NCBI GenBank assembly: GCA_044892505.1
Contig: CM097882.1
Span: 590,860,001-590,924,000, forward strand
DNA from: Schmidtea nova
Lineage: Eukaryota
Length of the DNA stretch: 64,000 nucleotides
Direction of reading: 5' to 3'
The translations under genes were made by a program, and so were the position numbers. The notes under the pieces were generated by a model. It had not been told where the DNA came from. It saw only the letters and a program-made list of their open reading frames with translations, and searched no databases. Position 1 is the stretch's first letter. The number at the start of each line of letters is the position of its first letter. This document shows positions 7,935-11,300 of this stretch, one piece after another.

Positions 7935-8386
7935 GGAATCTTTGTAAAAACTTTAACGGGAAAAATCATTACTTTAGAAGTTGAATGCAGCGATACAATT
8001 GAAAGTGTGAAAGCTAAATACAAAATAAGGAAGGCATTCCACCAGATCAGCAAAGATTGATTTTTGCCGGTAAACAGTTAGAAGGTGGAAGGACCTTATC
8101 AGATTATAAAATTCAAAGAGGATCTACGCTAAATTTGGTTTTACGTCTTCGAGGCGGCATGCAAATATTTGTGAAAACATTAACAGAGAAAACTATTTCC
8201 CTTGAAGTTGAATCAAGCGACATGATAGAAAACCTAAAGGAAAAAATCCGAGACAAAATTGGAATTCCGCCGGTGCAACAAAGAATTATTTATGCTGGCA
8301 GACAATTAGAAGGGTACAAAAAGTTTTCAGACTATAAGGTTGTTAATGGATCGACCATTCATTTGGTCCTGCGTTTAAGAGGAGGT
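7935..8386 (+). pseudogene. Diverged di-ubiquitin (Ub1 with a 1-nt frameshift near 8017; Ub2 intact at 8159-8386) fused to Bel/Pao Gag
   Basis: IFVKTLTGK...[17 protein letters not shown]...LRLRGG. Ub1 has ~9 and Ub2 23 substitutions versus canonical ubiquitin (hand count). Confidence 0.95.
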
Positions 8387-11300
8387 GGTATTGAAGATGA
8401 TGATGAATACAGAAATTTATGGAATCGTCGGCGTTCTCGAAAATGGAAAGTAACTCGAGCGCGTAACTTATTGTTGGCAGAAATGGTCAGGGATATAAAG
8501 GACACACTTGTAGTATATGAAAAAGAGTTTGAGGATACATTGGACGAATGGCTAAGACTTGTCGAGTTGTGTGACAAATTCAATAAGTAGGAGGAATTAG
8601 TATTAGTTGAAAAAAGATATTTGTGAGCTCGAAACGAAGAAGGAAGAGATAGATAAGTTAATGCAAAAAAGAACACAACAAAGTATTGTGAGCGAGGGAT
8701 CAAAAACATTGTAATGTGAATCGCCAAGAGAAAAGAAGAGTTTAAATCGGTTGCAGAAAATTAAAACTCCGATTTTCGATGGGAAAGTGGAAGAGTTTGA
8801 GACGTGGAAAGCGGCCTTCAATACGGGAATAGATAAGGCAGATGGAACAGCAGAAGATAAAATGCTGCATCTTAGGCAGTATTTGTTTGGTGAACCTCTG
8901 CGAATGATAGAGACACTGGGTTATACCGCAGAATGTTACAAAATGTGGAAAGAGAAATTGGAACGGCGTTACGGAGGTGAAGAGCGTAGTTACCTGACTA
9001 TGTTAGAAACTGTGGGTAAATTTCGGCCTGTTTGCGAAGGAGAAATGAAAGATTTGGATATTTTCGTTGGATTGTTGGAATCAATGGTTTAAGGCAATCG
9101 GAAGAGAAGAGGACCTACAGAGAGGCTGTCTCTTGCTACAATTGTTGAAGAAATTACCAGCTTCTCTACTTATTCTATGGAAAATAGAGCAAGCGAAAGA
9201 GGAAAGTGAGGAATCAATAACGCGGTTAAAGGAGTGGTTGCAAAATGAAGCTGACCTAACACGATCGACAAATGAAACATTATATGGTTTTGGTTGTGAA
9301 AAGGAGTTTAGTTGGCAATATGGGCAGAAAAACTTCAAGGTGTCTGAAAAGTTTGACAATAGAAGTTACACACACTTTACAAACTCTTGCAATGAGGTAA
9401 AACAAAACTCGAATAAAGGTGGGGAAGGAATTATTATGCAACAAGATCGAAGCACGTTGGCGTGTTTCAAATGTCGGGGTGCGCATTATCTAGACCAATG
9501 CCAAAAATTCAAACTATTATCAGTAAATGACAGGAAAAAAGGAGTTCAGGAGTGGAGATTATGTTATAATTGCTTAAAGAAAGGACATGGAGTGAGAGAA
9601 TGCACCAGACCAGGATTTTGTAGGGAAAAAGACTGTAGAGGAAAGCACCATTGTTTGTTTCATATTCGAAGAATGAAGGAATCCGAAGAGGACAGAAATC
9701 AAAGATCTCAAACGCATATCACTCGGTTGGTTACAAATAGAAAGTCAAATGATATAGGTTACATAAGCCTCAGGACAATACCTATTATTTTAGAAGCGAA
9801 TGGAAAAAGAATAAGGGTCAACGCATTACTAGACGATGCAAGTACGGTTAGTTATGTTAGTATGCATGTTTCTAAAGAATTACAATTGACAGGATCAAAG
9901 GTTTATGTTCCAGTTGGGGTAATAGGAGGAAAAAGAGAAAATTTGGAAGCGCAGAGAGTTAAAATGAATTTAATGAGTGTAGATGGTATGATGGTCAAAG
10001 AATTTCATGCTTGGTCGGTAGAGAAGGTAACAAGTGAATTGCGAGTGATTGATTGGAAGAAAGCAAGTCAAAACTGGGACCATTTGAGAGGCATCAGATT
10101 TGCAACGGCTGAAAGTCAATTATCGGTGGATGCGCTTCTTGTGGCTAATTATGCGAGTATACAAAGAGCAATAAAAGAGATATATGGACGTGAAGGAGAA
10201 CCGATAGCTAGGTTAACTCCATTGGGATGGACTTGCATCGGGAAAGAACAATCAGGTATTCCGTGCAGTAGACAAACTCACTTCATCCAATCTTATTTCA
10301 CAACAAATGAAGTGATCCAACAGCAGCTCCAACAAATCTGGGAAGTGGACAGTATTTGAATAGAGGAAGTGACAATGTCACCAAATGATTACAAATTGGT
10401 TGATGAAACAAGAAAACAAATGATAAAAACGGACAACAGATTTCAGGTACCAATACCATGGTGAGGAAGTCCAGAAATGTTACCAAACAATCGAACTATG
10501 GCTGAAAACAGACTTTTGAGCCTAGAGAAGAAATTGCACAAAGATGGATTGGTCACAGAGTATGATGAAATCATCTTAGATTACGTAGAAAAAGGTTATA
10601 TTAAGAAAGTGGATGGATCGATGGGCAAAACAGGGTGGTTATTGCCACATTTTCCAGTGGTTCGGCGGGAAAAAGAAACTACAAAGGTAAGAGTAGTTTT
10701 CGATGCTTCGGCAAAGTGTAACGGAGTGTCACTAAACGACATTATTGATGTTGGCCCAAAGCTTCAAGGCAACCTATTTAAAATATTAATAAGATTTCGA
10801 AAATTCAGCGTAGCCTAATATGCGACATCGCAGAGATGTATCTACAAGTTTGTATGCCGAAGGAAGATCAAAGATATCTCAGATTTCTATGGAGGGACGA
10901 TAAGGAAATTGTAGAATATCAATTTACAAGAGTGATGTTTGGGATTTTTTTTGGCTCAATTCGTTTCACAGGAAAATGCCCGAGAGTTTGAAGGTGAATT
11001 TCCAAGAGCTGCAAAAACGATCATTGAGTCTACATATTTGGACGATAGTATGGATTCGGTAGATAATGTAGTGGAATTAAAAGATAGTTTGTGTAACATT
11101 TGGGCAGCTGCGGGAATGATTGCAAGAAAGTGGATGACTTATTCACGAGAGGTGGCGGAGAAAATACCGATTGAAGAGCAAGCGCAATGTTTAATACTTC
11201 AAGAAAGTTCCGCTCTAGTATTCAAAACGTTAGGGCTAAAATGGGACGCTAGAATCGATGAATTTGGTTTTGAAGTGAGAATGCCAAAACTAGAAAAATT

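Follow-up and report, generated by a model that had tools for sequence, protein, structure and literature searches.

Ubiquitin as a processing signal and host mRNA capture by template switch are each known separately (PMC8310069 and PMC5131818, in their available parts). In cytopathic pestiviruses (BVDV Osloss, CP1, and CP Rit), a host mRNA piece and ubiquitin are inserted in frame before a viral protein, and host ubiquitin hydrolases cut after the ubiquitin to give an authentic N-terminus; the ubiquitin can be N-terminally truncated, CP Rit lacking MQI as the first ubiquitin (Ub1) of the element described here lacks MQ (available part of PMC8310069). These viruses are sporadic RNA-virus recombinants, whereas the ubiquitin described here was a stable, purifying-selected clade feature located before Gag and accompanied by a series of in-frame captures. 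LTR-mediated retroposition by template switch, reported for the Pao elements BATUMI and BEL18_AG among others (Tan et al. 2016, PMC5131818), yields partial, spliced, sense-strand pieces of host mRNA, several genes joined, within LTR elements, and the captures found here were of the same kind. In the available text of that paper, which has the word ubiquitin 0 times, captured pieces take the place of element sequence and keep the reading frame of the parental gene; here, they were located in the LTR and leader, followed the gag frame, and were neutral in amino acids but kept open, and the element kept multiplying.

Engineered late-domain replacements (available part of PMC2958808) also have ubiquitin fused to Gag, with L8/I44 needed and K48/K63 not needed, but their ubiquitin is C-terminal, has Gly-Gly deleted, and serves enveloped viruses, whereas the ubiquitin here was N-terminal with Gly-Gly conserved. 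Host polyubiquitin and ubiquitin-ribosomal precursors (L100-L105, L246) displayed the same ubiquitin-LRLRGG-X fusion, the tri-ubiquitin gene L100 being the donor of Ub1 and of the start of the second ubiquitin (Ub2); the element differed from them in having Gag as the partner and a ubiquitin 70-95% identical to that of the host, not 99-100%. The overall organization LTR-PBS-gag(DUF1759, zinc knuckles)-PR-RT-RH(Peptidase_A17)-IN in one frame was that of Bel/Pao (Belpaoviridae), while the N-terminal ubiquitin and the open frame through LTR and PBS (primer-binding site) were the element's own: a ubiquitin match or tail was absent in 161/168 protein relatives examined (many of them truncated), and no report of a ubiquitin-Gag retrotransposon was found in the literature searched, a scope that lay outside Repbase and subscription journals.

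The tandem unit and its decayed Bel/Pao copy

The window (the whole 64,000-nucleotide stretch analyzed) comprised two copies of a 33.15-kb tandem unit, which was present five times in the genome at 99.9% identity (C1:590.83-590.97 Mb), and a Burro-type giant element and a decayed Bel/Pao copy were both located inside each unit (Table 1). The element of the latter possessed an LTR pair, PBS, and polypurine tract, and it was identified as Bel/Pao because DUF1759, aspartic protease, Peptidase_A17, and an integrase zinc finger were matched downstream (Pfam), the domain order being gag-PR-RT-RH-IN. The segment 7092-7506 was a direct repeat of 13094-13542 and matched the LTR of sister copy L107; a helicase gene duplication was rejected, since the repeats were LTRs. 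The motif TGGTAGCAGAGCGTGGTT, presumably a PBS of the initiator-Met tRNA type, lay behind the LTR in most copies, and a candidate splice acceptor TTTTCAATTAG preceded Ub1. The window copy was dead, with gag stopped early and pol fragmented.

Table 1. Features of the window (positions count from its first nucleotide)
Feature	Position	Strand	Remarks
5' LTR of Bel/Pao element, 5'-truncated	7092..7506	+	ends TTAAAACA; carries captured DEAD-box Helicase_C fragment
Primer-binding site (PBS) TGGTAGCAGAGCGTGGTT	7507..7524	+	G-S-R-A-W when read in gag frame
Leader, PBS to ubiquitin	7525..7937	+	broken in window copy; gag frame open in sister copies
Ub1	7938..8158	+	residues 3-76, no Met1, K63R, frame change near 8020; source, unit 1 of host tri-ubiquitin gene L100
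Ub2	8159..8386	+	full ubiquitin, K48R, K63N, LRLRGG; first ~25-30 codons from L100 unit 2, rest older element-borne ubiquitin
Gag N-terminus (GIEDDDEY...VTRARN)	8387..8590	+	in frame with Ub2; closed by stop 8588-8590 after 67 codons
Remaining gag (DUF1759, zinc knuckles) and aspartic protease	8715..10359	+	split over two frames
Decayed pol: RT piece, Peptidase_A17/RNase H, truncated integrase	10465..12756	+	Pfam matches
3' LTR, 623 bp	12920..13542	+	Helicase_C fragment 13100-13540 in frame continuing into PBS and gag
Second tandem copy of Ub1-Ub2-gag N-terminus	41095..41747	+	33.15-kb unit, 99.9% identical
AT-rich insert, ~500 bp	45141..45642		in pol, second tandem copy only
Short tandem arrays, units 32, 29, and 103 bp	1557..1942 and 6494..6746
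C3HC4 RING ORF (Pfam zf-C3HC4_3)	2386..2922	-	probably more giant-element cargo
Burro-type giant element, intact-looking	14086..34160 and 47743..64000	-	4999-aa frame and separate ORFs (see text)

The original prediction was that two ubiquitins run straight into Bel/Pao Gag. Its Ub2 half stood, as the Ub2 frame (Pfam PF00240, 1.4e-41) was continuous with gag; its Ub1 half did not, as Ub1, which started without Met1-Gln2, was separated by its frame change in 5/5 tandem copies. An unbroken Ub1-Ub2-gag frame was present in sister copies, e.g., L006-L009. The residues were as predicted: besides its two substituted lysines, Ub2 kept L8/I44/V70 and LRGG, and Ub1 had K63R and kept K48.

The two elements had also been predicted to share ubiquitin-pathway cargo. 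A TRAF/RING protein did sit in the Burro-type element, but the link to the Bel/Pao copy was adjacency within the tandem repeat, and no functional link between the ubiquitin-gag element and the adjoining TRAF-bearing element was found. The 4999-aa frame of the Burro-type element encoded viral fusion glycoprotein, protease, RT, RNase H, integrase, and ankyrin domains, and RING-TRAF-MATH and zinc-knuckle ORFs were separate; this fits the available part of the description of Burro giant Ty3/gypsy elements, for which MATH/TRAF cargo was already described (PMC6431247), and would point to a planarian as the host.

Copy number, selection, and the conserved tail

Exact junction patterns were counted genome-wide, with LRGG-ND found 460 times, LRGG-GI 78 times, and reversed-pattern controls 0 times; at least 538 exact junctions against 0 controls placed the ubiquitin-gag fusion far beyond chance, and the fusion was real and family-wide. 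The DNA search with the di-ubiquitin-gag stretch gave 40 scored copies at 85-100% identity, and the protein search with Ub2 uncovered a larger, younger subfamily with the same gag and a single near-host ubiquitin. A 26-mer on the gag side had 434 sites, from which 70 copies were taken by position from the first 100 of the matches listed: ubiquitin or its C-terminal part was upstream in 70/70, and the window type accounted for 2/70. The LTR pairs of these copies were mostly 97-100% identical, LTR length ranged from about 540 to 1320 bp, and ubiquitin-gag-pol was in one frame in some copies. Ubiquitin was also borne by a second, divergent gag type (25 best matches).

These counts bear on the outcome that the original prediction had set against itself, namely relatives devoid of ubiquitin and a one-off, neutral polyubiquitin retrocopy that landed in a dead element. 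The window copy was indeed broken, and its Ub1 and the start of its Ub2 came from one host polyubiquitin mRNA, but the 70/70 copies with ubiquitin, the junction count, the ubiquitin piN/piS of 0.20 (see below), the near-identical LTR pairs of young copies, and the same position of ubiquitin in a clade of distant relatives refuted such an event, which is left with practically no probability.

Copies of the second gag type (L255, L264-L288) consisted of ubiquitin with Ile for Met1, ~100 gag residues, and then a long acidic/coiled-coil frame; they were non-autonomous yet amplified, being 96-98% alike. Non-autonomous young copies of the first type (L086, L089-L094) carried, in place of pol at the 3' end, a long in-frame tail that was acidic and rich in Asn/Glu. 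The (AAT/TAT)n microsatellite on both sides of many young insertions (L176-L215) hints at a possible target preference.

A dN/dS-type check, as proposed with the original prediction, was made as pairwise piN/piS over 66 copies (the 70 minus two window-type copies and two tandem twins). The values were 0.20 for ubiquitin, 0.18 for gag N, 0.26 for DUF1759, 0.95-1.03 for three leader parts, and 0.77 for the gag C-terminal part, the last confounded by deletions; ubiquitin was under purifying selection, and it differed from the Hsp70 piece (Fisher p 1.4e-4). Since pol was seen in only 1/40 unbiased 10-kb loci, selection was mostly read on non-autonomous, recombining, related copies. Ub2 and young ubiquitin compared at dN/dS 0.16, and the dN/dS of 0.5-0.6 within the old window branch is expected from decay after insertion. 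The junction tail LRLRGG was intact in 59/63 young copies versus 0/63 for the tail of the upstream ubiquitin remnant, and in the window branch, the Ub2 tail was intact in 27/36 versus 16/36 for the Ub1 tail (p 0.016); the Gly75 codons GGT/GGC/GGA numbered 24/20/18. Of the second gag type, 8/22 scored copies had in common a changed tail, LSLRLCGG. The leader was neutral in amino acids yet avoided stops (2/413 shared versus 37/991 singleton variants, p 2.5e-4) and frameshifts (in-frame indels 28/52 shared versus 46/180 singleton, p 1.9e-4), these p-values and the two above being generous because related and recombining copies were treated as independent.

The element placed a complete or nearly complete ubiquitin ending in L-R-G-G in frame before Gag, with no Pro after Gly76, and the processing device suggested originally was supported by its presence in all gag-side-picked copies and by the purifying selection. 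We consider it probable that the ubiquitin serves as a host-deubiquitinase cleavage cassette, which would free Gag from arbitrary leaders; such a role would explain why fold and tail are kept, why neither the chain lysines nor Met1 seem to matter, and why the leader stays open regardless of its amino acids. What counts against the cassette is the changed tail in the second gag type, the deviation of two relatives, P0193 and P0167, and the Met1 kept in most young copies (see below).

The same tail weighs on another proposal made originally, ESCRT budding; in this reading, ubiquitin would stay on Gag as a built-in late domain. L8/I44/V70 were kept in this genome, no PTAP/PPxY/YPxL motif was present in the gag tested (L087), and K48/K63 are dispensable for fused-ubiquitin budding in the available part of PMC2958808. 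The published fusions (same part of PMC2958808), however, are C-terminal and stripped of the Gly-Gly that was the best-kept feature here, so that the junction appears to be of the cleavable type rather than one retaining ubiquitin on Gag; in addition, I44/H68/V70 eroded in relatives, and there was no envelope domain among the Pfam matches of seven long frames (L087 ends before the element's end). A late domain is, on this balance, highly improbable.

Lysines, origin of the ubiquitins, and outside relatives

Among window-type copies (n=36), Ub2 had K48 in 0/36 and K63 in 1/35 scored, and Ub1 kept K48 in 33 and had K63R in 22/35 and K in 11; K48 was retained in three further Ub2 copies (L066, L069, L070). 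Scored single-ubiquitin copies had K48 in 62/63 and K63 in 63/63, and the second gag type kept both in 22/22. Compared to the host, Ub2 displayed 14 near-fixed changed sites, 11 of them within residues 45-67; the chance of hitting both K48 and K63 was 0.22 within this 23-residue stretch and 0.03 if the changes were spread over the whole domain.

Chain termination had also been put forward originally. In this reading, released Ub2 (K48R, K63N) would cap host K48/K63 chains to protect element proteins. Agreeing with it were the absence of K48 from 36/36 and of K63 from 34/35 scored Ub2 copies, the K63R in most scored Ub1, the N63 of P0193, and the kept R42, R72, and LRGG, with which conjugation would be possible. 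Chain termination is nevertheless very unlikely, because both lysines were kept in the dominant young subfamily and in the second gag type, K48 even in three Ub2 copies, the window type was rare among unbiased copies, the loss of 2/7 lysines among 14 changed sites was at chance level (p 0.38), and new lysines had appeared in Ub2 (median total 7). The K48/K63 loss was real and inherited, but it was a side-branch trait, limited to the window branch rather than maintained across active copies, and K48R/K63N most likely represent tolerated drift in a domain needing only its fold and tail.

Host-like ubiquitin amounted to only 14 units at 7 loci. Ub1 matched unit 1 of L100 throughout (third-position identity 0.81-0.88), and Ub2 and young ubiquitin matched L100 unit 2 over their first 20-30 codons, while their 3' parts matched none of the 14 host units, nor each other; from this, we infer that the di-ubiquitin arose by capture of a polyubiquitin mRNA that recombined into an older resident ubiquitin. 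Two intermediate copies (L107:2567-3361 and L111:3160-3954), composed of Ub1, an in-frame insert, a degenerate second ubiquitin half, a near-host ubiquitin, and then gag, showed signs of repeated ubiquitin replacement. Y45, K60, and G64 of Ub2 are residues that we take to be NEDD8-like; simple NEDD8 capture as the Ub2 source is disfavored by R72 and the L100-derived 5' part.

Outside this genome, 5/168 gag relatives had a ubiquitin match directly before gag, and two more began with an LKGG tail in the same register; these seven shared 32-40% gag identity with the element. In a gag tree of 153 tips (FastTree, midpoint root, 16 short rows dropped), the element, the seven relatives, and two N-terminally truncated members composed a clade of 10 with moderate support (0.84). 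The position of ubiquitin and its Gly-Gly tail were deeply conserved: L73 was kept in 7/7 and Gly-Gly in 6/7, while I44, H68, V70, K48, and K63 varied, and Gly76 was followed by varying residues (G, N, S, M) and never by Pro. The deviant tails were LYGG in P0193 and LKEG in P0167; P0193 also resembled Ub2 in its N63/G64, and GSRA was in frame in its leader. Metagenome scans with P0216 and with the L087 gag found nothing.

Captured host mRNA and the frame open through the LTR

A total of 291 LTR-zone segments, i.e., 290/444 cluster representatives (the 154 shortest left out) plus that of the window, were scanned in all frames. The Pfam cut-off was passed by 24/291 segments, 21 in the gag frame and 3 in another sense frame, with antisense 0/140; one DDE_1 match was tallied as out-of-frame although located in the flank, and sub-cut-off matches (GSAP-16, SARAF, Orf78, synaptobrevin, and two GTP_EFTU) were not counted. 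All 10/10 host families were in the gag frame: HECT, Helicase_C, SAM decarboxylase, TCP-1, GTP_EFTU, zf-C4, ABC_membrane_2, SET_TTL, enolase, and Paf67; the helicase piece in the window's own 3' LTR likewise sat in this frame, and further captures were calmodulin 1-25, glutathione reductase, and Hsp70. The pieces were partial and sense-strand, and the enolase piece joined four exons that span ~30 kb in the host, at 93-99% identity where ungapped, indicating that this piece, from the one gene tested for introns, derived from a spliced mRNA.

The gag frame ran from the LTR captures through the PBS into ubiquitin. Its stop-free run upstream of the PBS had a median of 131 codons versus 20 and 10 in the other frames (n=36); for the window branch (n=23), the corresponding figures were 87 versus 4 and 12. 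Met1 was present in 0/20 scored Ub1 and was absent from the second gag type (24/24 copies) and from 6/63 young copies, and an upstream start was needed in all of these; the 57/63 young copies with Met1 could start at ubiquitin itself.

That last group, together with the 29/35 scored Ub2 having Met1, speaks for a different emphasis: ubiquitin is cut off, but mainly for Gag yield or folding and for the N-terminal residue (N-degron), with translation starting at its own Met and the open leader secondary, a safeguard against decay or stops upstream. Ubiquitin fusions aid expression, and Asn, with which young Gag would begin, is a destabilizing N-terminal residue. This emphasis, which is compatible with the cleavage cassette and not exclusive of it, is unlikely as the main explanation, given that Met1 was missing from the second gag type and Ub1, that the residue after Gly76 varied, and that the in-frame position of all ten capture families requires upstream translation as an explanation.

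For the cleavage cassette, the following course is suggested by the arrangement of frames: (i) translation would likely begin within the LTR or leader, upstream of ubiquitin, and often on host mRNA pieces that had been captured; (ii) ribosomes would read LTR-PBS-leader-ubiquitin-gag as one frame; (iii) host deubiquitinases would cut after Gly76 and release Gag with a fixed N-terminus; and (iv) any in-frame upstream start codon would become productive, and the element could tolerate or exploit captured sequence. More tentatively, and at somewhat less than even chance, an old Bel/Pao clade may leave to the host both the initiation and the N-terminal processing of its polyprotein, driving translation from 5' ends and start codons of host mRNAs trapped in the LTR (calmodulin, enolase) and using as a universal host-cut adaptor a ubiquitin that is repeatedly renewed through recombination with polyubiquitin mRNA of the host, which would amount to a standing frame-selecting exon-shuffling machine.

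If the cassette is real, a retrotransposon naturally employs the kind of ubiquitin fusion that arises sporadically in recombinant pestiviruses and is made in the laboratory, which would explain how the element can take up host mRNA pieces at its 5' end again and again and still keep its Gag. The hundreds of young copies would then show, as few natural data sets do, what a ubiquitin cut by deubiquitinases has to conserve, namely fold and tail, not chain lysines. In such genomes, what looks like an expanded ubiquitin, Hsp70, enolase, HECT, or calmodulin gene family can be cargo of transposons. Genome-wide, ~50 enolase-fragment matches ended at the same profile position and were LTR cargo, while real enolase loci numbered 2-3.
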